Part shown: positions 2,564 to 12,091 of the stretch, piece by piece | Position numbering within the stretch: position 1 is the stretch's first letter | How the letters are laid out: the number at the start of each line of letters is the position of its first letter | Assembly: GCA_037443265.1 (NCBI GenBank) | Contig: JBBIOR010000013.1 | Coordinates: forward strand, 1 to 12,091 | Source: Candidatus Fraserbacteria bacterium | Lineage (GTDB): Bacteria > Bipolaricaulota > Bipolaricaulia > RBG-16-55-9 | Reading direction: 5' to 3' | Length of the DNA: 12,091 nucleotides | Program-made: the position numbers and the translations under genes | The notes under the pieces: generated by a model | What the model saw: the letters and a program-made list of their open reading frames with translations, nothing else | The model's database searches: none | Told to the model about the DNA's origin: nothing

Positions 2564-3856
2564 TTATTGATCTAGGATGATCTGTCCGAGCTCCACGCGA
2601 ACATCACCCGAATTGATCAAGCTCCTCAGTCGATAGAAATAGCGCCCTGGGGGCAAGGGAGTTCCTTGGGCATCGACGCTCTTCCAGATGAGCTCCGGTC
2701 CTTCGGCAGCGGCCGTGGCTATGAGTTGCCCATCGGCGGTCAGGATCTCCCATTGGAGCTTTTGAGCAGCAGGCAGCGAGATCTTAAGCTCTTGGGCTGG
2801 CTGAATGCGGACGATGGGCTGGCCCCCTCCGTCTGTGAAGCGCGCGGCCCTCTGCTGGCCCAGGGTTCTCACCTCCGCGCCCACCTCGAAAAAGCGCTGC
2901 CCAATCTGGGTGACCAGAGCGAGCAGGTCTTGGGCGACGGCGTTTAGATCTATATTCGAGGCCCCGTTGACGGCCGCCTGGAGCTGTTGGGCCTTCGCCA
3001 GCCCTTGAGACATCCACTGGGCGGTCTCACTTAAGGCGGCCAGAGAGATCCCCTCGATCGCCAGAGCCGAAAGCTCCGTCAAATCCCGCTGGATCACCTC
3101 GAAGGCACTCAAAAGGGGAGGCAGATAGAGCGCCCGAACTCCTTCGAACGCCTTACGGAAAGCGGTAGCCATCGACTGATAGAGTTGCGCGATTTGTTCC
3201 CCAATCTGCATCTGAGTCTCCGCGGCCAGCGGGGCCGGCAAGATCTGACGGAGCGTGGAGATCCTCGTCGAGTTGAGCGAAAAAGCCTGAGACGCCTTAT
3301 CCAGCGCGCTTTGAAAGACGCCGAGCAATTGGAAGAGATCGCTGCTCGGCTCCATGTGAAGGGTCTGCCCTGCCTGCTGTAAGCCATGGGCGATTGATGA
3401 GAGCAAGGCCAGCGTGAGGGAACGAACTCCTTCCAGCTTGCGGACTTCCACATACGTCTCCAAGGTGTTGTTGGACTCGTTCGACTCGGCGATCTCATCG
3501 AAGATGTCGACGCGGACGCGCAGGAGGTGCTCCCCTTCGGCCGGCGTCCAGAGGAGGCGCACTTCGGCCTGGGCAGTGGGCCTTAGGCGGGCGAGAAGCG
3601 GCTGGGTCGCCAGGCGAACACCATCTGCCTCAAAGGCCACAAGGAAGCGCTCGGATACTTGTTCTTGCCCGCGATTGGCGATGATGGCTGTAAGTTCTAC
3701 GGGGATGCCGGGCTCGGGTTCAGGGGAGCTCAGCACGAGCCGCTCCACCACAAGGTCGGGAAGGCCCTCCGTCTGCGGAGTTGCTGGCCAACTGATGACC
3801 CACCCCATCCCCAAGATGACCAGAACGACCCGGGTGATCTCACGCGCGTTCATCAT
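2564..3856 (-). CDS. Secreted CARDB-domain protein with helical core and FlgD-type Ig C-terminal domain (430 aa)
   Basis: Signal peptide. CARDB motifs LPDLVV...IANRG...GEHLLRVRVDIFDEIAESNESNNT. Ala/Gln/Leu-rich amphipathic helical middle. C-terminal EILTADGQLI...LIWKSVDAQGTPLPPGRYFYRL (FlgD_ig-like). G-rich SD upstream. Confidence 0.85.
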   Translation of the reverse strand: MMNAREITRVVLVILGMGWVISWPATPQTEGLPDLVVERLVLSSPEPEPGIPVELTAIIANRGQEQVSERFLVAFEADGVRLATQPLLARLRPTAQAEVRLLWTPAEGEHLLRVRVDIFDEIAESNESNNTLETYVEVRKLEGVRSLTLALLSSIAHGLQQAGQTLHMEPSSDLFQLLGVFQSALDKASQAFSLNSTRISTLRQILPAPLAAETQMQIGEQIAQLYQSMATAFRKAFEGVRALYLPPLLSAFEVIQRDLTELSALAIEGISLAALSETAQWMSQGLAKAQQLQAAVNGASNIDLNAVAQDLLALVTQIGQRFFEVGAEVRTLGQQRAARFTDGGGQPIVRIQPAQELKISLPAAQKLQWEILTADGQLIATAAAEGPELIWKSVDAQGTPLPPGRYFYRLRSLINSGDVRVELGQIILDQ

Positions 3857-3974: not shown

Positions 3975-4337
3975 ATGGCGTTCGAGCGGTTCACAGCCAG
4001 CGGCAAAAGCTTCAAGGCCCGAATCTCCATCCGGAAGAACGGCCAGATCAGCCTCTCCCAAGGAGCTGTGCAAAAGTTTAGGCTCACCGAGTACCCCTAT
4101 GCCGTGCTCTTCTACGACAAAGAGAAGCACCGCATCGGTCTAAAGCCCACCCAGGACCCTGAGGAGCCGGGCGCATACAAGCTCAACTTCAAAGGGACAG
4201 GGGCCTCTGTGGCGGGCCTGGCCTTTTTAGACTACTACGGCATCGATTACAGTCGCTCCCGGCGCTTCGAGGCTCAGTGGGACGAGGAGCACGAGATGAT
4301 CGTGATCGATCTGGCGTCCCCGATCTCGCCTAGGTGA
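3975..4337 (+). CDS. Hypothetical protein (120 aa), possibly AbrB/MraZ-like swapped-hairpin fold
   Basis: Perfect SD and host-like codon usage. ISIRKNGQISLSQGAVQKF resembles the AbrB-type beta-hairpin/helix signature. The fold call is inference. Confidence 0.75.
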   Translation: MAFERFTASGKSFKARISIRKNGQISLSQGAVQKFRLTEYPYAVLFYDKEKHRIGLKPTQDPEEPGAYKLNFKGTGASVAGLAFLDYYGIDYSRSRRFEAQWDEEHEMIVIDLASPISPR

Positions 4338-4354
4338 GGTGATGATGGCCCATC

Positions 4355-5869
4355 ATGGACGTGAATGTAAAGCATGGGGATATTTTAAATATCAAGACGG
4401 AAGCGATCTGTCTTGGGATCTTCCAAGGGGTGCGCGCGCCGGGTGGGGCAGCCGGCGCGGTGGATCGGGCTCTGGGTGGCGCGTTGAGCGCTCTTCTTAA
4501 AGAGGGAGACTTTGAAGGCAAGAAGGGCGAGCTTCTTTTCCTTCGCACAGAGGGCAAGATCCCGGCGAAGCGGGTCTTGCTCGTCGGCTTAGGAGAGCGC
4601 GAGCGATTCACCCTGGACGTCGCGCGCGAGGCCAGTGCGGCGGCGGCTCAAGCCGCGGGCCGATTTCGAGAGCTGACGACGATTGTGCACGGAGCGGGCA
4701 TCGGCGGACTCTCCCCCGAGAGTGCGGCTCAGGCCGTGGTCGAGGGGGCCATCTTAGGGACGTATCGCTTTGAGAGATACCGCCAGCAGCGGGAAGGGCC
4801 GCGGTTAGAGCGCCTGCAGCTCATAGAGTTCGACCGGAGCAAGCTTTCAGAGATGGAAGCCGGTGCAAAGCGGGGGCAGATCATCGCTGAAGCCGTCTGC
4901 TTGGCGCGGGATTTGGCCAACGAGCCCGCAGCCAGCCTCACCCCAAAAGAGCTGGCGGAACGAGCAGAAGCCCTGGCGAAAGAATTTAAGCTCCAGTGCC
5001 AAGTGCTAACGGAGAACGAGCTGAAGAGGGCAGAGATGAACGGCATTCTGGGCGTGGCCCGCGGAAGCGATGAGCCTCCTAGATTGATCGTGCTTGAGTA
5101 TTGGCCGCAGCGGGCGAAGTTCTCAGAGCCCATTGCACTTATTGGCAAGGGAGTGACATTCGACAGCGGGGGGATCTCCATTAAGCCGCGCGAGGGCCTG
5201 GAGGCGATGAAATACGACATGGCCGGAGCCGCGGCTGTGTTAGGAGCCATGCGGGCTCTCTCCGCGCTGGAGCTGCCCTTGCCTGTGGTGGGTCTGGTGC
5301 CCGCCGTCGAGAATCTTCCCAGCGGCAAAGCCCTCAGGCCCGGGGACATCCTGCGCTTCGTCAACGGCAAGACGGTCGAAGTGACGAACACGGATGCGGA
5401 GGGCCGGCTGATCTTGGCGGACGCCCTCATATATGCTCAGCGCTATCGGCCTCGGTTTGTGATCGATCTGGCCACTTTGACGGGGGCCTGTGTGATCGCG
5501 CTGGGGAAGGAGGCCGCCGGGCTCTTCAGCAATCATGCCCCGCTTGTGGAGAGGCTGAAGGCGGCCTCCCAGAAGACGGGCGAGCGCGTCTGGGAACTGC
5601 CGCTCTACGAAGAATATAGAGAACTGCTCAAGAGCGAGGTGGCGGATCTTAAGAACTCCGTGCTGGCCAAGAGCGGGATCCCCCAGGCGGGCGCGGCGGC
5701 CGGAGCCATCTTCTTGCAGGAGTTCGTCTCGTATCCCTGGGCGCATCTGGACATCGCGGGCACGGCCTACGATGTGGAGACGAGAGCCTACTGCCCCAAG
5801 GGAGCCACAGGCTACGGTGTGAGGCTCTTGACCCAGTTGCTCTTGGATGAGGCCCAAAACTCAAATTAA
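4355..5869 (+). CDS. pepA: Leucyl (cytosol) aminopeptidase, peptidase family M17
   Basis: GKGVTFDSGG, MKYDMAGAAAV, NTDAEGRLILAD, DLATLTGA and WAHLDIAG motifs. N-terminal M17_N domain; 504 aa. Confidence 0.97.
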   Translation: MDVNVKHGDILNIKTEAICLGIFQGVRAPGGAAGAVDRALGGALSALLKEGDFEGKKGELLFLRTEGKIPAKRVLLVGLGERERFTLDVAREASAAAAQAAGRFRELTTIVHGAGIGGLSPESAAQAVVEGAILGTYRFERYRQQREGPRLERLQLIEFDRSKLSEMEAGAKRGQIIAEAVCLARDLANEPAASLTPKELAERAEALAKEFKLQCQVLTENELKRAEMNGILGVARGSDEPPRLIVLEYWPQRAKFSEPIALIGKGVTFDSGGISIKPREGLEAMKYDMAGAAAVLGAMRALSALELPLPVVGLVPAVENLPSGKALRPGDILRFVNGKTVEVTNTDAEGRLILADALIYAQRYRPRFVIDLATLTGACVIALGKEAAGLFSNHAPLVERLKAASQKTGERVWELPLYEEYRELLKSEVADLKNSVLAKSGIPQAGAAAGAIFLQEFVSYPWAHLDIAGTAYDVETRAYCPKGATGYGVRLLTQLLLDEAQNSN

Positions 5870-5880
5870 AAGGGGGAATC

Positions 5881-6468
5881 ATGAAGGATCTGCACCCTTC
5901 GGCCTTGGTGCTCATTCTGGCGCTTGTGGTGAGCGGATGCTCGCTGTTTAGCCCGCCTTCCCCTCCGCCGCCGTCGAGCGATCCGATCGCCCTGCTCCTA
6001 TCTGCTGATTCAGACATGAAAGAGCAAGTCCGAAGGGCGATGGCCAGAGCAGCCGAACGGGCCGGGATCTCCATTCAGCTAAGTAATCTCGTCTATCTCT
6101 CGCGGGATGACCTCACGGTTGCCCATGCGCTCGTGGTGGACTTCGACTCCTTGAGGCTTTTAGAGCCCAATCGCGTGGGCGATGTGGGACTGGCGTTCCT
6201 CTCCCTGCCGGCTTCCGTGGGCGTCCCCACAGGCTTCTACAAGATCAGGATCTTCGTGCTGGAGGCAAAAGCCGAGCTGCTGGATGCCCAAGGCGGTGTG
6301 GTGGCCGTCTTTCCGTTGGAGCGGGCGCAGGAGACACCCGGCTCGCGGCCTTTGATCTCCGTCACCAACTGCCGCGTGACACTGATCTATCAGCAGGTGA
6401 GCCAAGGGGTTCCGCCCATCCAGGCAGCCGTGCCGCTCGATTGGTGCAAGCCCGTCGGGCCGCTTTAA
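5881..6468 (+). CDS. Lipoprotein of unknown function (195 aa)
   Basis: Hydrophobic h-region ending in lipobox VSG-C20, followed by a Pro/Ser tether (SPPSPPPPSS). SD AGGGGG; 11 nt after the pepA stop. Confidence 0.8.
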   Translation: MKDLHPSALVLILALVVSGCSLFSPPSPPPPSSDPIALLLSADSDMKEQVRRAMARAAERAGISIQLSNLVYLSRDDLTVAHALVVDFDSLRLLEPNRVGDVGLAFLSLPASVGVPTGFYKIRIFVLEAKAELLDAQGGVVAVFPLERAQETPGSRPLISVTNCRVTLIYQQVSQGVPPIQAAVPLDWCKPVGPL

Positions 6469-6473
6469 AAGGG

Positions 6474-6546
6474 AGCCGGCGGTCGGGATCGAACCGACGA
6501 CCTGCCGCTTACGAAGCGGCTGCTCTACCAGCTGAGCTACGCCGGC
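6474..6546 (-). tRNA. tRNA-Thr (anticodon CGT)
   Basis: GCCGGCG-TAGCTCAGCTGGTAGAGC-AGCCGC-TTCGTAA-GCGGC-AGGTC-GTCGG-TTCGATC-CCGAC-CGCCGGC-T. Full cloverleaf, 73 nt, followed by CCC rather than CCA. Confidence 0.97.
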
Positions 6547-6564
6547 GCAAAGCGCAGAGATCTT

Positions 6565-6593
6565 AGCTTAGCTGGGCCATCGCGGGAAGTCAA
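6565..6593 (-). promoter_or_regulatory. Promoter of tRNA-Thr
   Basis: Minus strand TTGACT (6593-6588) - N17 - TAAGCT (6570-6565), ending 18 nt before the tRNA 5' end. Confidence 0.7.
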
Positions 6594-6628
6594 GCCAAGG
6601 TGCTGATAAGAGGGAGCGGAGAGCCGGC

Positions 6629-6697
6629 CTCGGAGCGCTTCAAGTGGCAGGCCATCTCGTTGAAGCTGGGGGCCAGAGCCCCTAGCTCGTCTTCGGT
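6629..6697 (-). pseudogene. Relic of a HAMP domain (sensor kinase/receptor fragment)
   Basis: Translates as TEDELGALAPSFNEMACHLKRSE, matching the HAMP helix-2 signature DExGxLAxxFNxMxxxL. No intact gene surrounds it. Confidence 0.55.
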
Positions 6698-6719
6698 CTC
6701 ACCCCCTTCTCGTTCTGTC

Positions 6720-6748
6720 TTGACATGCCGGTCCTTGTGCAGTATACT
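6720..6748 (+). promoter_or_regulatory. Near-consensus sigma70 promoter of the B12 enzyme-asnB-odh operon
   Basis: TTGACA (6720-6725) - N17 - TATACT (6743-6748). Predicted transcription start ~6754-6756. Confidence 0.85.
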
Positions 6749-6753
6749 AAAAT

Positions 6754-6938
6754 TGTCGCCGAGTTCCTGTGGCATTCTCCTGCTCAGCGGCATCGATTTT
6801 CCCTACGCGACATCGGCTTCTACTCCAGAGGATATCCGCTCGGCGACATAAGCCCATAGATGAGAGTGGGTTTCGGCCTCCCAGCTCTCGCTGGGGTAGT
6901 TGATGCTGCCTCCGCGCCGGGACCCAAGGAGGGAAGCA
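6754..6938 (+). promoter_or_regulatory. Structured 5' leader, candidate riboswitch or translational attenuator of unrecognised class
   Basis: 10-bp stem 6754-6763/6839-6848. Hairpins 6850-6873 and 6879-6896. Alternative hairpin 6862-6889. Anti-SD CCTCC (6909-6913) is complementary to SD GGAGG (6928-6932). Confidence 0.55.
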
Positions 6939-8573
6939 ATGAGAAAGATCATGGCGGGCGCCTTGGGCGAAGACGCCCACGTGGCAGGCGTGGCGAATTT
7001 TTTGAGACTGGCTGAGGAAGTGGGCTGGCAGACGGTCTATCTCGGCGCGGCCGTCTCCGTAGATGAATTCATTCGAGCGATTCACCAGCACGACCCACAG
7101 CTGGTGGCCGTAAGCTACCGCCTGACGCCCGAGACGGGCGAGGCCCTTCTCAAACAATTCATCGAGGCCGTCCAGTGCGAAAACTTGCAAGACAGACGCT
7201 TCGTCTTCGGCGGGACGCCGCCCCTTGCGGAAGGAGCTCGCCGGCTAAAATTCTTTGAGCGTTGCTTCTCCGGAGAAGAGACTCTGGATGAAGTGATCGC
7301 CTATCTGCGGGGACAGCTGCGCGAGGGAGCTTCGGAAGAGGATTACCCGCAGACCTTCATGGAGCGGCTCAAATGGAAGGCCCCCTACCCGCTCATCCGC
7401 CATCACTTCGGCCGCCCCACCCTCGAAGAGACTGAAGAAGGCATAAAGAAGATTGCAGACGCCATGGTCATCGACGTGATCTCTTTAGGAATCGATCAGG
7501 ACGCCCAAGAGAACTTCTTCCATCCCGAGAGACAAGACCCGCGGCGCAAGGGGGCAGGTGGCGTGCCCGTGCGCTCCGCCGAAGACTATCGCCGGCTCTA
7601 TCAGGCCAGCCGCCGCGGAAATTTCCCGCTTATGCGCGTCTACTCCGGCACCGATGACCATCTGAAGCTCGCCCAGCTCTATGTCGAGACCATCAACAAT
7701 GCCTGGTGCGCGACTTCGATCTTCTGGTTCAACCAGCTGGATCGTCGCGGACCATTAGGGCTGGAAGAATCCATAAGAGTCCATCAAGAGCTGATGCGAT
7801 GGCACGGCGAGCGCCATATTCCCGTAGAAGTCAATGAGCCACATCACTGGGGGATGCGCGATGCCCCTGACGTGATCTACGTCGTCGCCAGTTTTCTGTC
7901 GGCCTACAACGCGAAAAAGATGGGCGTGAGAGATTATATCGCCCAGTATATGTTCAACAGCCCCAGCGGGCTCTCGGATCGCATGGATCTCGCCAAAATC
8001 TTAGCGTGCATTGAACTGGCCGAGGCCCTGGCCGATGAGAATTTTAGAGTCTATCGTCAGACACGCACGGGGCTGCTGAGCTACCCCGTCAATCCCGCGC
8101 TCGCCAAGGGGCATCTTGGAGCTTCCGTCTATTTGCAGATGGCTGTCAAGCCCCATATTGTGCACGTGGTCGGCTTCCCGGAGGCCCATCACGCCACCAC
8201 GGCCGAGGAATTGATCGAAAGCTGCAAGATCGCCCGCAGAGCAATCGAGAACGCCCTGCGAGGAGCCCCGGACATGACGGCCGATCCGGCCGTGCAGCAG
8301 CGCAAGCGTCAGCTCGTCTCGGAAGCGAAAGTGACGCTGGAAGCCATTAAGCGCATCTCCGAGCCCGGCGTGCGAGACCCTTGGATCGATCCGGCCACGC
8401 TTGCCCGAGCCGTGCAGCTGGGCATCCTCGATGCGCCTCATCTCAAGGGACATCCTCTGGCGAAGGGACAGATCGTCACGCGGATCATCGATGGCGCGTG
8501 TGTGGCCGTCGAGCCCCAAACCGGAAAGCCCGTCTCTGAGGAAGAGCGCCTCAAGGCCCTGGGGGTGTTCTGA
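6939..8573 (+). CDS. Cobalamin-dependent enzyme: B12-binding domain fused to a glutamate-mutase-E-like TIM barrel (544 aa)
   Basis: N-terminal Rossmann B12-binding domain with base-off/His-on motif DAHVAG (6972-6989)...SYRL...FGGT. The C-terminal ~400 aa are colinear with GlmE/MutE as recalled (e.g. NFPLMRVYSGTDDHLKLAQ; SYPVNPALAKG...HIVHVVGFPEAHHATTAEE). Start placed at ATG 6939 behind SD AAGGAGGG (6926-6933). Confidence 0.8.
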   Translation: MRKIMAGALGEDAHVAGVANFLRLAEEVGWQTVYLGAAVSVDEFIRAIHQHDPQLVAVSYRLTPETGEALLKQFIEAVQCENLQDRRFVFGGTPPLAEGARRLKFFERCFSGEETLDEVIAYLRGQLREGASEEDYPQTFMERLKWKAPYPLIRHHFGRPTLEETEEGIKKIADAMVIDVISLGIDQDAQENFFHPERQDPRRKGAGGVPVRSAEDYRRLYQASRRGNFPLMRVYSGTDDHLKLAQLYVETINNAWCATSIFWFNQLDRRGPLGLEESIRVHQELMRWHGERHIPVEVNEPHHWGMRDAPDVIYVVASFLSAYNAKKMGVRDYIAQYMFNSPSGLSDRMDLAKILACIELAEALADENFRVYRQTRTGLLSYPVNPALAKGHLGASVYLQMAVKPHIVHVVGFPEAHHATTAEELIESCKIARRAIENALRGAPDMTADPAVQQRKRQLVSEAKVTLEAIKRISEPGVRDPWIDPATLARAVQLGILDAPHLKGHPLAKGQIVTRIIDGACVAVEPQTGKPVSEEERLKALGVF

Positions 8574-10070
8574 ATGTGCGGCATCGTCGGCTGCTTTCAG
8601 CTTGAGAGAGGGAAGCCTTCGCCCCCCGTCCCCGCTGAGCTTTTGTTGGCAGAGATCCAGCATCGCGGGCCGGATGATGTGGGCTTTCATCGCAGCGGGC
8701 GAGGCGTGCTCGCCCAGACGCGCCTCGCCATCATCGATGTAGCCCATGGACACCAGCCCTTGAGCAACGAAGATGAGCGCCTATGGATTGCCTACAACGG
8801 GGAGATCTATAATTTTAAAGAGCTTCGCGAGACGCTGCGTGGATGCCATGAGCTGAAAACCCGCAGCGACACGGAAGTCGTCTTGCATCTCTTTGAAGGC
8901 GAAGGCCCAGATTGCCTCAAGCGTTTCGACGGCATGTTCACGCTGGCCATCCTCGACGGCGATGAGCTGTTTCTCGCGCGCGATCCCCTGGGGGTGAAGC
9001 CTCTCTATACGGCTGAGCGCGACGGCTGGCTTTACTTTGCCTCGGAGATGAAAGCCCTTTTGCCCCTAGCAGCTCACATCGAAGAATTTCCCCCAGGGCA
9101 CTGGTTCCACAGCCGTCATGGCTTTCGCCCGTACTTTGAGCTTAAGCGCTGGATTGCGGAGAGTGAGCCGCCAGCCGACCCGCTGCGCGCCTTACGAGAA
9201 ACCCTGGCCAGAGCCGTCGAGAAGCGCCTGGTGGCCGACGTGCCCGTGGGAGTCTTTCTAAGCGGTGGCTTAGATAGCAGTCTCGTAGCCGCACTCATGC
9301 GCCCTCATGGGGATGAGCTGCACTCGTTCTCCGTGGGGATGCCCGGCAGCCTCGATCTCGAATATGCGCGCCGGGTCGCTGAATTTTTAAATACAACACA
9401 TCACGAGCGCGTCTTTACCGAACAAGAGATGCTCGCCGTTCTACCACGGGTCATCTATCATCTGGAGTCGTGCGATTTTGCTCTCGTGCGCAGCGCGATT
9501 GCGAATTATTTCGTCGCCCAGCTGGCAAGCACTCTCTTAAAAGTCGTGCTGGTGGGTGAGGGCTCCGATGAGATCTTCGCCGGCTATCACTATCTGAAAG
9601 ACTTGAGCGAAGAAGAGCGCCTGAGAGAACTCTTCCGCATCACGCTGGCGCTTCACAACTCGAATCTTCAACGGGTGGATCGCATGACCATGGCCCATGG
9701 GCTGGAGGGCCGCGAACCCTATCTCGACCTCGAGCTGCTCAAAGTTGCCTTCAATATCCCGCTGGAGCTTAAGCAAAACGAAGGCGTGGAGAAATGGGCT
9801 TTACGCAAGGCCTTCGAGGGCTACCTGCCTGAGGAGGTGCTCTGGCGCACCAAGGAGAAATTCGCGCGCGGAGCAGGCTCGGCTCTGGTCTTTGAAGACA
9901 TAGCCGAGCGCGAGATCTCCGATGAAGAATTTGAACGCGCAAGAATGCTCTCTAACGGCACAAAGCTGCGCTCCAAGGAAGAGCTCTATTACTATCGCAT
10001 CTTCCGGCGGTTCTTCCCTGAATCTCTGGTGAGTTGTCTCGGCTGGACGGCCGCTCCGGAGAGGAGGTGA
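8574..10070 (+). CDS. asnB: Asparagine synthetase B family, glutamine-hydrolysing amidotransferase
   Basis: Ntn nucleophile MCGIVG; HRGPD, RLAIID, GHQPL and YNGEIYN motifs; PP-loop SGGLDSS; GEGSDEIFAGY; C-terminal SKEELYYYRIF. ATG abuts the upstream TGA. Confidence 0.92.
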   Translation: MCGIVGCFQLERGKPSPPVPAELLLAEIQHRGPDDVGFHRSGRGVLAQTRLAIIDVAHGHQPLSNEDERLWIAYNGEIYNFKELRETLRGCHELKTRSDTEVVLHLFEGEGPDCLKRFDGMFTLAILDGDELFLARDPLGVKPLYTAERDGWLYFASEMKALLPLAAHIEEFPPGHWFHSRHGFRPYFELKRWIAESEPPADPLRALRETLARAVEKRLVADVPVGVFLSGGLDSSLVAALMRPHGDELHSFSVGMPGSLDLEYARRVAEFLNTTHHERVFTEQEMLAVLPRVIYHLESCDFALVRSAIANYFVAQLASTLLKVVLVGEGSDEIFAGYHYLKDLSEEERLRELFRITLALHNSNLQRVDRMTMAHGLEGREPYLDLELLKVAFNIPLELKQNEGVEKWALRKAFEGYLPEEVLWRTKEKFARGAGSALVFEDIAEREISDEEFERARMLSNGTKLRSKEELYYYRIFRRFFPESLVSCLGWTAAPERR

Positions 10071-10079
10071 TCTTCAGGT

Positions 10080-11183
10080 ATGAAGAAGACTTGCTACACG
10101 GTGATCGGAGCCGGTCACGGCGGCAAGGCCATGGCGGCTCATCTGGCCTTGATGGGGTTCCCCGTCGTGCTTTACAACCGCACGGAATCCCACATTGAAG
10201 CGATCCGGGAGCGCGGGGGCATCGAGCTGGAGAGGTCCGACGGGCATCCGGGAGGCTTCGGCAGGCTTCAGTTGGCGACGGCCAACTTGGAAGAAGCTCT
10301 CGCCGAGGCTGAGATCGTCATGGTGGTGGTGCCCTCTTCCGCCCATCGCCAGCTGGCGGAGAAGTGCGCACCCTTCTTGAAAGACGGCCAGATCATAATC
10401 CTCCATCCCGGGCGGACATGCGGCGCGATCGAGTTCGCCAAGGTGCTCCGCGATCAGAAATGCCCAGCGGATGTGACCATTGCCGAAGCCGAGACGTTCA
10501 TCTACGCCAGTCGCTCCACGGGGCCAGCCCAAGCACGTATCTTCGGCATTAAACACACGGTTCCCCTGGCCGCGCTTCCGGCCAGTCGCACCCCTTCCGT
10601 GCTCAAGGCCATTGCCGACGCCTATCCCCAGTACATCGACGGCGGCAACGTCCTCAAGACAGGCTTAGATAACATGGGGGCGATCTTCCATCCGGCCCTC
10701 ACCATTCTCAATGCGGGCTGGATCGAGGCCACAGGGGGAGATTTTCAATTCTATATTGACGGTGTGACTCCTTCTGTGGCCCGAGTGCTGGAAGTGCTGG
10801 ATCGCGAGCGCGTCACGGTCGCCGCGGCCTTGGGCATCCAGGCCAAGACGGCTCTCGAATGGCTCCAGATGGCCTACGATGCGCGCGGCTCGGATCTCTA
10901 CGAGGCCGTCCAGAACAACCCCAATTACTATGGCATCAAGGCCCCCTCTACCCTGGAGCACCGCTACATTTTTGAAGATGTGCCCATGAGTCTGGTGCCC
11001 ATTGCGGCTTTGGGGGTGCGCTATGGGGTCTCCACGCGGGGGATGGAGGCGCTCATCAAGCTGGCCAGCATCATCCATCGCACGGACTATTGGCGTCGTG
11101 GGCGCACCCTCGATAAATTGGGCATCGAGAACTTAAGCGTTAGCGAACTCACCAGATACGTCATGGAGGGCCATCTGCCCTAG
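10080..11183 (+). CDS. NAD(P)-dependent opine (octopine/nopaline family) dehydrogenase
   Basis: Rossmann VIGAGHGG; AEAETFIYASR; LDNMGAIFHP (catalytic His) and RYIFEDVPMSLVP (catalytic Asp), as in Arthrobacter CENDH; YWRRGRTLDKLG tail. SD GAGGAGG immediately precedes the asnB stop. Confidence 0.9.
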   Translation: MKKTCYTVIGAGHGGKAMAAHLALMGFPVVLYNRTESHIEAIRERGGIELERSDGHPGGFGRLQLATANLEEALAEAEIVMVVVPSSAHRQLAEKCAPFLKDGQIIILHPGRTCGAIEFAKVLRDQKCPADVTIAEAETFIYASRSTGPAQARIFGIKHTVPLAALPASRTPSVLKAIADAYPQYIDGGNVLKTGLDNMGAIFHPALTILNAGWIEATGGDFQFYIDGVTPSVARVLEVLDRERVTVAAALGIQAKTALEWLQMAYDARGSDLYEAVQNNPNYYGIKAPSTLEHRYIFEDVPMSLVPIAALGVRYGVSTRGMEALIKLASIIHRTDYWRRGRTLDKLGIENLSVSELTRYVMEGHLP

Positions 11184-11224
11184 GATTCCATCCCCTCAGC
11201 TTCTCAACCTTGTTCTAGCGCCCT

Positions 11225-12091
11225 CTATCGCCCCCACAGCCAGTAGATATAGAGCGGCGTGAGGATGAACAGCAGCAGATTGAGGGGTGCCCCTACACGG
11301 GTGAAATCTAAAAATCTATAGCCGCCAGCTCCGTAGACCATCGTGTTCGTCTGGTAGCCCACAGGGGTCGAAAAGCTCGTCGAAGCCGCAAACATGATGG
11401 TCAGGATGACGGCTTTGGGGTCCAGCCCCAGCGTCTGGGCCGTGGCCGCCCCCACCGGCACCAAGAGCACCACCGTCGCGTTGTTCGAGATCAACTCCGT
11501 GAGCACCATGGAGAAGAGATAGAAGATCCAGAGCACGACGATGAGCGGAACATACTGGGCCGCCTGTGCGGCCAAATCGGCCAAGAGCTGCGCTCCGCCT
11601 GTCTTCTCCAGGGCGATCCCCAACGGGATCACCCCGGCCAACAGGAAGATCACATCCCAGCGGATCGACTCATGCAGCTCCGTGATCTTCAGACAACCCG
11701 TAAGCACCATGAGCACGCAGCCCTCAATGGCCGTCACCAAAATGGGCTGAATTCCCAAAGCCGCCACGAGGACCACTCCGGCGATAATGCCCACAGCCAG
11801 CGGGATCTTCTCCTTGCGAAAGACTTCCGCTTGGAGCTCCTCGGTGACGATGAAGTTAGGATCGAGCTTCAGGCGCGCGAGGGCCTCTTTGTGGCCTTGA
11901 AGCAGGAGCGCATCACCAAAGCCCAAGCGCACATTGTGCAGTCTTTCGCGAATGAGGGCCCCATGTTTTCTTATGGCCAGCACCGTGCAGCCGTAGCGGC
12001 TGCGAAAGTTCGTCTCAACCAGCGTGCCTCCGATGAGGCCAGGCTTCTGCCCACCAGCGGCGAATCTTCCAATACGACGACTTCGGTGAGG
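11225..12091 (-). pseudogene. SLC13/DASS-like permease with TrkA-C (RCK_C) domains, 3' part; apparent frameshift near 12037-12040; 5' end outside window
   Basis: C-terminal membrane domain with IRWDVIFLLAG, TELISNNAT and AASTSFSTPVGYQTN motifs. TrkA-C segment LIGGTLVETNFRSRYGCTVLAIRK..GDALLLQG. The upstream TrkA-C start LTEVVVLEDSPLVGRSLA is in a different frame that stops at TAA 11973-11971. Confidence 0.75.

Follow-up and report, generated by a model that had tools for sequence, protein, structure and literature searches.

The 12,091-nt window of Candidatus Fraserbacteria DNA analyzed here carries three adjacent genes that may well form one functional module, encoding a mutase-like protein with a B12-binding domain, an AsnB-type amidotransferase, and an opine dehydrogenase. 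The best reading of this module, to which as a whole we give a probability of roughly 0.45, is that it makes a rearranged and amidated solute of the opine type that serves osmotic or K+ homeostasis. At its center is a pair of genes, for the mutase and the opine dehydrogenase, that are almost never found apart in bacteria and in some archaeal bins.

The three genes lie on the forward strand in the order mut-asnB-odh. The mutase-like gene (6939..8573, 544 aa) most likely starts at the ATG at 6939, which stands 6 nt behind an AAGGAGG motif and at the residue where its homologs also begin, and ends with a TGA at 8571-8573. The asnB gene (8574..10070, 498 aa; ATG at 8574, TGA at 10068-10070) follows with a gap of 0 nt, and odh (10080..11183, 367 aa) after a further 9 nt, with GGAGAGGAGG just upstream of its ATG at 10080. 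These ORF coordinates agree with the first-pass annotation, which had described three same-strand genes with these gaps behind a single strong promoter under leader control. A sigma-70-like site (TTGACA-17 nt-TATACT, 11/12 matches) is present on the forward strand at 6720..6748 and is the sole such site in a scan of positions 6400-11400, but one site in a 5-kb region is at chance level (1.6 ± 1.3 in shuffles), so that only its placement is suggestive. Leader control was not borne out: the 190-nt 5' UTR (6749..6938, forward strand) folded no better than its shuffles (MFE -67.8 vs. -67.1 ± 4.8 kcal/mol, z = -0.15), had no Rfam family at E ≤ 1, did not match the model of the c-di-AMP riboswitch in an unfiltered search (6.2 bits at best), and showed no conservation in relatives, the closest of which has a short intergenic region at that place.

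The mutase-like protein is a B12-binding domain fused N-terminally to a TIM barrel of the glutamate mutase fold. PF02310 (B12-binding) scores 43.7 bits against a cut-off of 32.1, and the protein carries the His-on DxHxxG motif as D12-A-H14-V-A-G17; H14 is kept in 19 of 20 homologs, and position 12 is Cys in 16 of the 20. PF06368 spans the barrel at 22.8 bits, under its gathering cut-off of 26.6. When the barrel of an AF2 model (pLDDT 92.3) was compared with the PDB by Foldseek, the best match was the glutamate mutase E chain 6h9e_B (E 2.3e-17), the two top matches, 6h9e_B and 1cb7_B, having E-values of about 2-4e-17 and TM-scores of 0.57-0.65. Ornithine and lysine aminomutases and methylmalonyl-CoA mutase came next, and the fold matches listed were radical isomerases with no methyltransferase barrel among them. 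Paralogs of the protein carry a fused MutL reactivase, one homolog is fused to an ATP-grasp domain, and a PduO-type adenosyltransferase (206 bits) is encoded in the same genome, in which, at 88% completeness, a MutL reactivase had no match. The protein thus has the architecture of an adenosylcobalamin (AdoCbl)-dependent radical isomerase, with AdoCbl use and radical turnover predicted from the MutL-fused paralogs and the genomic PduO-type adenosyltransferase.

The resemblance to GlmES/MutES (6h9e, 1cb7) extends to the barrel fold, to the kind of B12-binding domain, and to the use of MutL-type reactivases by some members of both families. The window enzyme differs in sharing only 17-18% identity, in having its S and E parts fused with the B12 domain first, and in lacking an ammonia-lyase partner, with an opine dehydrogenase as its obligate neighbor instead. 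It is very improbable that the first gene encodes either a usual glutamate (methylaspartate) mutase, serving glutamate fermentation or the methylaspartate cycle, or a methyltransferase of the corrinoid type, despite the weak PF06368 match, GlmE as the best fold match, nearest Atlas clusters named methylaspartate mutase, and source names that include 'methionine synthase' and 'methylmalonyl-CoA mutase cobalamin-binding subunit'. The PF06368 score stays below threshold, and the arginine claw of GlmE is not kept at the aligned positions. Residues R66, R100, R149, E171, and Y181, which we take to be the glutamate-binding residues of GlmE, are conserved in 13 of 14 GlmE sequences; the window enzyme has H156, Q190, and Y235 opposite R66, R100, and R149, and E171 aligns to a gap or to D268 depending on the alignment, in low-probability profile alignments (54% and 32%) that disagree around E171 and Y181. 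The invariant R154 and R233 of the window family lie two residues off the GlmE arginine positions, on the same strands. Genuine GlmE clusters are moreover found alongside the mutase-like family: Tepidanaerobacter holds a separate mutL-glmE-mal cluster, with a true GlmE (PF06368, 778 bits), beside its window-type enzyme, and several genomes match both the GlmE search and the search for the mutase-like family. This coexistence indicates that the family acts on another substrate and, together with the replaced arginines, upholds the earlier argument against ordinary glutamate fermentation. That argument had started from the lack of MutL and methylaspartate ammonia-lyase genes; neither was detected in the window, and the genome search likewise gave no ammonia-lyase match over the family cut-off. 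As for a methyltransferase, the listed barrel matches are all radical isomerases, and the MutL fusions point to AdoCbl radical chemistry. As judged from its sequence, the mutase-like enzyme is not a glutamate mutase.

A CENDH-like opine dehydrogenase, its predicted catalytic residues intact, is encoded by the third gene. It matches PF02317 at 166.6 bits (cut-off 30; 5e-49) and, over residues 4-356, the N-(1-D-carboxyethyl)-L-norvaline dehydrogenase 1bg6 (E 4.5e-77). Among 18 homologs, H204 and R295 never vary and D300 is kept in at least 90%; these His, Arg, and Asp residues are presumably catalytic. The Arthrobacter CENDH (1bg6) has the same two-domain layout, and the match is nearly full length; it is, however, a stand-alone enzyme, while the window dehydrogenase is locked to a B12 enzyme. 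We know of no physiological role for the Arthrobacter enzyme.

The association of these genes is conserved in other genomes, as a gene-neighborhood check called for earlier has now established. All three are present in the loci of 9 of 9 relatives, with the gene order of the window in 8. Eight or more phylum-level groups contributed the 80 distant loci, in 71 of which odh is on the same strand as mut and no more than 400 nt away; where at least 1.3 kb was available on both sides (61 loci), odh is adjacent in 58 and the arrangement is mut-asnB-odh in 2 more. An asnB gene occurs within 3 kb of the pair in 13/80 loci and a gene for a Ddl-like ATP-grasp ligase directly upstream on the same strand in 6/80, with neither next to the pair in about 60. 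The proposal of the trio as a unit therefore holds for the mutase-dehydrogenase pair, whereas AsnB is a variable third member.

The second protein is a glutamine-dependent AsnB-type amidotransferase by sequence, whose acceptor may be aspartate or another compound. It scores 563 bits with NF006949 (asparagine synthase B equivalog; cut-off 499) and 442.6 bits with TIGR01536 (cut-off 267.1), matches E. coli AsnB (1ct9) at E 1.2e-94, and has an N-terminal MCG, with the Cys nucleophile, and an SGGLDS PP-loop; TIGR03104 (NAGGN amidotransferase) gave 282 bits, under its cut-off of 570. Profile and PDB matches thus bear out all three families first assigned: mutase, AsnB, and opine dehydrogenase. The equivalog score, the low frequency of asnB near the pair in distant loci, and the finding that this is the only AsnB above the family cut-off in the 88%-complete genome, so that it may have a housekeeping role, all suit a reading in which an ordinary asparagine synthetase sits between mutase and dehydrogenase while the pair alone is the functional unit. 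We regard this as unlikely, if the most serious of the alternatives, since 9/9 relatives retain asnB next to the pair or inside it, and the gene turns up there again in Chloroflexota, Bacillota, Ignavibacteria, and one unclassified bin. Of 5 genomes checked, 3 (Caldanaerobacter, Thermoanaerobacter, and G049) have the cluster-linked copy as an extra paralog beside a second, higher-scoring long AsnB elsewhere in the genome. The window AsnB also groups with 13 other cluster-linked AsnBs at 100/100, apart from 3 long AsnBs that were the only outgroup rows, and in Caldanaerobacter and Thermoanaerobacter asnB lies within a riboswitch-led operon. An ordinary AsnB would be compatible with the core of the solute reading, from which it would drop only the amidation step.

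The pairing of these genes is in part already in print. Zhang, Rodionov, Gelfand and Gladyshev (2009; BMC Genomics 10:78, PMC2667541) predicted a new family of B12-dependent proteins with an N-terminal distant B12-binding domain that always adjoins a pfam02317 octopine/nopaline dehydrogenase, with D-Ala:D-Ala ligase and asparagine synthase nearby in several organisms; their sample was 11 genomes from 4 phyla, and their account of the family gives no function. The gene association they describe is that of the window, which adds a new lineage with the order mut-asnB-odh; the glutamate mutase fold, the MutL-fused paralogs, and the riboswitch do not figure in that account and come from the present analysis. 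In Halothermothrix orenii, Mavromatis et al. (2009; PMC2626281) noted a putative operon of Hore_09740 and Hore_09750, encoding an octopine dehydrogenase together with a B12 (cobalamin)-binding protein that distantly resembles methionine synthase, and tied it to hot anaerobic habitats. This is the two-gene form, without AsnB, and in contrast to the proposed habitat the relatives considered here include many non-thermophile bins. Our literature search found no characterized pathway for the trio and no characterization of the B12 family, so that the idea of an undescribed pathway stands with respect to function, although the gene association itself was printed in 2009 (PMC2667541; PMC2626281).

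Homologous operons in other genomes point to a physiological context. RF00379, the riboswitch for the osmotic-stress signal c-di-AMP, was found in 4 of 7 homologous loci, and with our own model such a riboswitch lies directly upstream of the operon, on the same strand, in 25 of the 80 distant loci (23 of 33 in Bacillota, 1 of 36 in Chloroflexota, and 1 unclassified); in 4 of the 25 it precedes ATP-grasp-odh-mut. In the genomes of Tepidanaerobacter and Sporanaerobacter, the operon's riboswitch is the only RF00379 match. None was found anywhere in the 88%-complete window genome, so for the window's lineage the regulatory argument is borrowed from distant relatives. Genes for K+ and osmolyte uptake are known to be under c-di-AMP riboswitch control (PMC7266159), and the riboswitches ahead of homologous operons, a new observation here, lend independent support to the compatible solute that the first-pass annotation had offered as one guess.

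A further c-di-AMP riboswitch in Caldanaerobacter precedes a gene for a binding protein. Its best match is the binding protein of the clusters that hold MutL-fused paralogs (53-58% identity, the next at or below 35%), and the two are orthologous by sequence, a connection that is also new. In 3 of 3 cases, these MutL-fused paralogs cluster with a long opine dehydrogenase, a Peptidase_C26, a GntR/UTRA regulator, and an Opp/Dpp-type ABC transporter, and such clusters look catabolic, as a related uptake and breakdown set in other Bacillota genomes. The binding protein, C26 amidase, and MutL of these clusters were not found in the window genome.

Under the solute reading, the mutase would rearrange an amino-(di)carboxylate's carbon skeleton, and the dehydrogenase would use NAD(P)H to couple an amino group with a 2-oxo acid, for instance pyruvate, so that an N-(carboxyalkyl) amino acid results. 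Product and step order are put forward conditionally; in one version the mutase takes the N-substituted compound as its substrate, which would agree with its lacking the residues that bind free glutamate. Next, one carboxylate would be adenylated and turned into an amide by the AsnB-type enzyme, lowering the net charge, and in other lineages a Ddl-like ATP-grasp ligase may fill this third position. Most likely the product would be a small solute or K+ counter-ion, inert in metabolism, that cells produce when under osmotic or potassium stress, because the Bacillota operon lies directly behind a c-di-AMP riboswitch and because other Bacillota genomes carry a related set of genes for uptake and breakdown. 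Rather less likely, in our view, is the fuller proposal of a new AdoCbl rearrangement on an N-substituted, opine-type amino-dicarboxylate that, with the dehydrogenase and amidotransferase, yields a new class of compatible solute or K+ counter-ion, with Bacillota c-di-AMP riboswitches directly governing both synthesis and uptake and the MutL-fused set degrading the compound.

Two known pathways follow a comparable logic. The N-acetylglutaminylglutamine amide osmolyte pathway (AsnO-Ngg) ends with an AsnB-like amidation, in which an AsnB-type amidotransferase neutralizes a carboxylate of a small solute. Pyrrolysine synthesis by PylBCD combines a radical mutase, an amide-forming ATP-grasp ligase, and a dehydrogenase to build a modified amino acid. 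The window genes have no sequence-level membership in either, and the window mutase is of the B12 type, whereas PylB is a radical-SAM enzyme.

The same third enzymes also invite a role in the cell envelope, in which the module would make an unusual amino acid or pseudo-dipeptide for the peptidoglycan stem or cross-bridge. Enzymes of both kinds, Ddl-like ATP-grasp ligases and AsnB-type amidotransferases, act on peptidoglycan peptides elsewhere, examples being the D-Asp ligase and AsnH of Lactococcus and the mDAP-amidating AsnB of Bacillus, and murein peptides are among the cargo of Opp-type binding proteins. Of the three other c-di-AMP riboswitches in Caldanaerobacter, two stand ahead of genes for NlpC/P60 and LysM cell-wall hydrolases, with which a cell-wall role fits as well. 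We nevertheless consider it improbable: the pair is present in bins labelled Bathyarchaeia, Sifarchaeum, and Nitrosopumilales, which are expected to be without peptidoglycan (binning errors being possible), most loci are without a ligase, and the 40 commonest neighbor clusters of the pair include no recurrent mur genes or other genes of wall synthesis.

Slightly less probable again is that the module degrades an imported opine-like compound, with uptake by a transporter, oxidative cleavage by the dehydrogenase, and a mutase that straightens the branched product. Opine dehydrogenases are reversible, and the catabolic-looking clusters contain a paralogous pair of dehydrogenase and mutase::MutL. 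A gene for a DASS/CitMHS-type anion transporter with TrkA-C (RCK_C) lies convergent to odh (11225..12091, reverse strand; PF03600, PF00939, PF02080), where it is cut by the window end and enters a run of N just beyond. A 45-47% identical gene occupies the same convergent place in the loci of 6 of 9 relatives, with a fragment in a seventh, and the 80 distant loci showed none next to the pair; the transporter is a syntenic neighbor whose membership in the system is uncertain. Several observations speak for synthesis over breakdown. The window genome lacks the binding protein, C26 amidase, and MutL that mark the catabolic-looking clusters, no repressor gene adjoins the operon, and an amidotransferase consuming ATP and glutamine is a biosynthetic feature. 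Riboswitch control as in K+ and osmolyte uptake genes (PMC7266159) likewise suits supply, not breakdown.

A product resembling the opine metallophores is far less probable than either. The pathways for staphylopine and pseudopaline do have an opine dehydrogenase as their last enzyme and importers that use family-5 binding proteins, and the paralogous clusters have a linked binding protein of family 5. However, a nicotianamine-synthase-like gene (PF03059) was absent from the window and genome searches, the pair has no metal-regulator or exporter genes as neighbors, and the homologous operons are under c-di-AMP rather than metal-sensor control.

To our knowledge, B12-dependent carbon-skeleton mutases are few, and each has so far revealed new radical chemistry. 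If the new-solute reading is true, it would provide a function for a widespread B12 family that has had no assigned reaction since its prediction in 2009, and would add a biosynthetic arm to the c-di-AMP regulon. A new osmolyte would also be relevant to the way in which bacteria of the subsurface and of anaerobic digesters withstand salt and ammonium, and B12 would join the cofactors that limit stress tolerance. The physiological question is now testable in cultured thermophiles, as a search for a compound that accumulates on a salt or K+ shift. The family offers many subjects: at least 582 genome stretches encode a relative of the mutase-like protein, 58 of 301 sampled Bacillota genomes have one, and the closest named relative, at 83% identity, is from a Candidatus Fraserbacteria bin.

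The mutase-like gene (mut; 6939-8573), the AsnB-type amidotransferase gene (asnB; 8574-10070) and the opine dehydrogenase gene (odh; 10080-11183) are open reading frames on the + strand, in the three-gene arrangement described by the first-pass annotation; the mut stop abuts the asnB start (TGA directly followed by ATG), and 9 nt separate asnB from odh, with GGAGAGGAGG directly 5' of the latter. For mut, the start is assigned to the ATG at 6939 in preference to the TTG at 6900 because AAGGAGG stands before that ATG and homologues start at that residue. The module is real, conserved and composed of known enzyme families, and its gene association was already published in 2009. Zhang et al. predicted a new family of proteins dependent on B12, of untested function, that always adjoins pfam02317, the octopine/nopaline dehydrogenase family, with Ddl and AsnB close by (Zhang et al., 2009; PMC2667541), and another report describes a two-gene operon in H. 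orenii whose role was called unknown (Mavromatis et al., 2009; PMC2626281). According to a third study, the octopine dehydrogenase Teth514_2108 of Thermoanaerobacter X514, a candidate odh orthologue only, was up-regulated in an ethanol-adapted strain (PMC3751872). The literature search found no characterisation, in keeping with the earlier statement that no characterised pathway using this trio is known, and no c-di-AMP link; two primary riboswitch papers may already list the riboswitch association. Added here are a glutamate-mutase fold that appears to lack the glutamate site, an architecture of a gene pair with a variable amide-forming enzyme, a link to c-di-AMP riboswitches, and a paralogous, catabolic-looking cluster. 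The folds, motifs, gene and riboswitch linkage and the orthology of the binding proteins are shown, whereas we infer the substrates, order of steps, amidation target and physiological role. From common amino acids and 2-oxo acids, the mutase and dehydrogenase would make a rearranged N-(carboxyalkyl) amino acid, which AsnB would then amidate to give a stress solute or K+ counter-ion; this is the likeliest reading but a tentative one, with a probability of about 0.45.

The mut protein carries a DAHVAG motif and an N-terminal B12-binding domain (PF02310, 43.7 bits against a cut-off of 32.1), followed by a second region matching methylaspartate mutase E at 22.8 bits, under the threshold of 26.6. 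Its AlphaFold model, with 20 homologues as input, is confident (pLDDT 92.3); against the PDB, glutamate mutase E chains come out on top (6h9e_B, E 2.3e-17; 1cb7_B), followed by ornithine 4,5-aminomutase, methylmalonyl-CoA mutase and lysine 5,6-aminomutase, and the Atlas places it closest to clusters of methylaspartate mutases (score 0.95). The homologue alignment holds no invariant or near-invariant lysine, which argues against a PLP-dependent aminomutase; MutL-fused paralogues and a PduO-type adenosyltransferase encoded in the window genome lend support to adenosylcobalamin radical chemistry, as judged from sequence. A complex prediction for mutase and dehydrogenase from custom alignments scored 0.00 and carries no weight either way. 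At mutase position 12 (window 6972-6974), two residues ahead of the cobalt-ligand histidine, Asp is found in 3 of the 20 sequences of the homologue alignment (A1), in the window's clade only, and Cys in 16 of 20, giving CxHxxG rather than DxHxxG, and there the position immediately before is acidic. There is also a second, longer family (P0174, P0183, P0188, P0215 and similar proteins; 606-636 aa), 33-37% identical to the window protein's barrel, whose own barrel has no Pfam match; one possibility is a 2-methyleneglutarate mutase. A search of 301 Bacillota genomes with P0183 (~606 aa) did not recover that protein's own family; every match belonged either to the family of the window protein or to the form fused to MutL.

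That mut encodes a true glutamate mutase, or a methyltransferase, is very improbable. The fold favours the former, but Tepidanaerobacter has a separate mutL-glmE-mal cluster alongside the window-type family, and several Bacillota genomes score in searches for both the window family and true GlmE, the glutamate mutase E component. In profile alignments of low probability (54% and 32%), GlmE R66, R100 and R149, the glutamate-binding arginines, align to H156, Q190 and Y235, and GlmE E171 to a gap or to the invariant D268; the aligned GlmE residues are conserved in 13 of 14 GlmE sequences. A carboxylate-rich substrate is still likely, since the invariant R154 and R233 lie on the same strands, two residues from the aligned positions. 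On these alignments, mut is predicted to encode a glutamate-mutase fold without the glutamate site, and not a glutamate mutase. Canonical glutamate fermentation was given low weight because the GlmE arginines are replaced and true GlmE coexists elsewhere; the corrinoid methyltransferase reading was considered and also given low weight, as was a metallophore product, which is very improbable.

A full-length mut orthologue was found in 10 of 41 related genomes, with fragments at contig ends in 2 more; the remaining matches were to the B12 domain only. All three genes are present in 9/9 fetched relatives' loci, in the window's order in 8, and the convergent downstream gene, a DASS/CitMHS transporter that carries a TrkA-C domain, is syntenic in 6 of the 9, a seventh having a fragment of it. 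In a broader search, mut relatives turned up in at least 582 genome stretches, of which the best 80 were counted; these comprise 36 loci from Chloroflexota, 33 from Bacillota, 3 from archaeal bins, 2 from Ignavibacteria and one bin from each of five other groups. Among these best 80, odh lies less than 400 nt from mut on the same strand in 71, and where at least 1.3 kb was available on both sides (61 loci), odh is adjacent in 58, the order is mut-asnB-odh in 2, and the remaining one (L070) has mut-asnB without odh. A Ddl-like ATP-grasp gene, scoring under every Ddl cut-off, occurs in 10 of the 80; in 6 it is the same-strand gene immediately upstream, and one mut homologue carries a fused ATP-grasp domain. 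Thus the genes do co-occur elsewhere, as the first-pass annotation would have it, but the core is narrower than its trio: with odh adjacency near-universal and AsnB found within 3 kb in 13 of the best 80 loci, the invariant unit is the mut-odh pair, joined in some loci only by an enzyme that forms amides. Three archaeal-labelled bins have the pair, L041 (Nitrosopumilales), L072 (Sifarchaeum) and L097 (Bathyarchaeia); the L041 protein is 65% identical to the window's, high across domains, and mis-binning or recent transfer is possible.

The asnB product scores above the NCBIfam equivalog cut-off for asparagine synthase B (563 vs 499), matches E. coli AsnB (1ct9, E 1.2e-94) and retains the MCG nucleophile and SGGLDS loop. 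The odh product resembles N-(1-D-carboxyethyl)-L-norvaline dehydrogenase (1bg6, E 4.5e-77), with H204, R295 and D300 conserved. It is doubtful that AsnB is a mere housekeeping neighbour, a reading that would leave the core of the proposed pathway intact. The window's asnB is the sole AsnB over the cut-off in its genome, so it may serve both pathway and housekeeping roles; in Caldanaerobacter, Thermoanaerobacter and a further genome (G049), the AsnB linked to the cluster is an additional copy, with a long AsnB scoring higher, and in a 17-row tree with those 3 long AsnBs as a small outgroup, the 14 copies linked to the cluster, that of the window among them, split from them at 100/100. In one unclassified bin (L108), two AsnB paralogues lie no more than 5 kb from the pair, at 11663-13111 (+) and 14995-16419 (-), and are sisters in the tree (97/95).

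Of 7 loci from Bacillota or Ignavibacteria, 4 have a c-di-AMP riboswitch, identified by Rfam, directly 5' of odh-mut. A model built from those riboswitches and run on 89 sources gave 26 matches, 25 of them directly upstream on the operon strand and the other 6 kb off, in L054; among the best 80 loci, those led by the riboswitch are 23/33 from Bacillota, 1/36 from Chloroflexota and 1 unclassified. The order riboswitch, ATP-grasp, odh, mut is seen in four loci. The operon riboswitch is the sole RF00379 (c-di-AMP riboswitch) match in the Tepidanaerobacter and Sporanaerobacter genomes, and of the four Caldanaerobacter matches, one precedes odh-mut-asnB, another the gene for a family-5 binding protein and the remaining two genes for cell-wall hydrolases. 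According to a review, such riboswitches usually control genes for K+ transporters, for amino-acid transporters, for remodelling of the cell wall and for osmotic shock (PMC7266159). That the module makes a cell-envelope building block is unlikely.

Each of the three MutL-fused paralogues examined adjoins a long opine dehydrogenase, which shares 26% identity with that of the window, as well as a Peptidase_C26 amidase, regulators of the GntR/UTRA type and an Opp/Dpp-type ABC transporter, and the best genomic match of the riboswitch-controlled Caldanaerobacter binding protein is the binding protein of the MutL-fused cluster's transporter (53-58% identity; runner-up at most 35%). Together, the riboswitch-led operon, the orthologous binding proteins and the catabolic-looking MutL-fused clusters suggest that one class of compound is made, taken up and degraded, a pattern known from compatible solutes. 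The window genome, 88% complete, encodes a diadenylate cyclase; no RF00379 match was found in it, nor an orthologue of the riboswitch-linked binding protein or Peptidase_C26 amidase. That the module works in catabolism in the window organism is quite improbable. In Tissierellia/Clostridia (L060, L063, L065-L067, L071, L078, L089, L114), riboswitch-odh-mut is flanked on one side by phosphate butyryltransferase, a butyrate-kinase-like gene and 2-oxoacid:ferredoxin oxidoreductase genes, and on the other by a fatty-acid synthesis block (FabH, FabK, FabD, FabG, FabF, FabZ), probably lineage synteny.

The window's putative operon had also been called leader-controlled, which the data do not bear out. 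The 190-nt leader folds with no greater stability than shuffled versions of it (z = -0.15), matches nothing in Rfam at E <= 1, reaches at best 6.2 bits, no match, with the c-di-AMP riboswitch model with filters off, and is missing from the nearest relative. The promoter-like site TTGACA-17-TATACT (6720-6748, +) is the sole such site within 6400-11400, against 1.6 +/- 1.3 in shuffles, and so at chance level. Between it and the upstream genes, a tRNA-Thr (CGT; 6472-6546, -; 69.4 bits) forms the 5' boundary of the operon region. The upstream genes, unrelated to the module, encode PKD-domain (147-1523, +), CARDB-domain (2564-3856, -) and M17 leucyl aminopeptidase (4355-5869, +) proteins, along with reading frames at 3975-4337 (+) and 5881-6468 (+) that have no Pfam or NCBIfam match. 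Downstream, the transporter gene is broken by an N run of ~100 bases right past 12091 (about 1093-1200 in DNA stretch L131), and its N-terminal half is unreadable in frame. In seven relatives (L032-L037, L039), a tRNA gene stands directly 5' of mut on the same strand (in L033, tRNA-Pro, GGG, by ARAGORN; example region L033:10563-10782, -), followed by a conserved 96-152-nt leader that matches no Rfam family. Its GGCGGCCCUCC would, by prediction, base-pair with the Shine-Dalgarno region, and a CCGCC lying upstream might compete with it for those bases. This leader, not present in the window, may be a translational control element.
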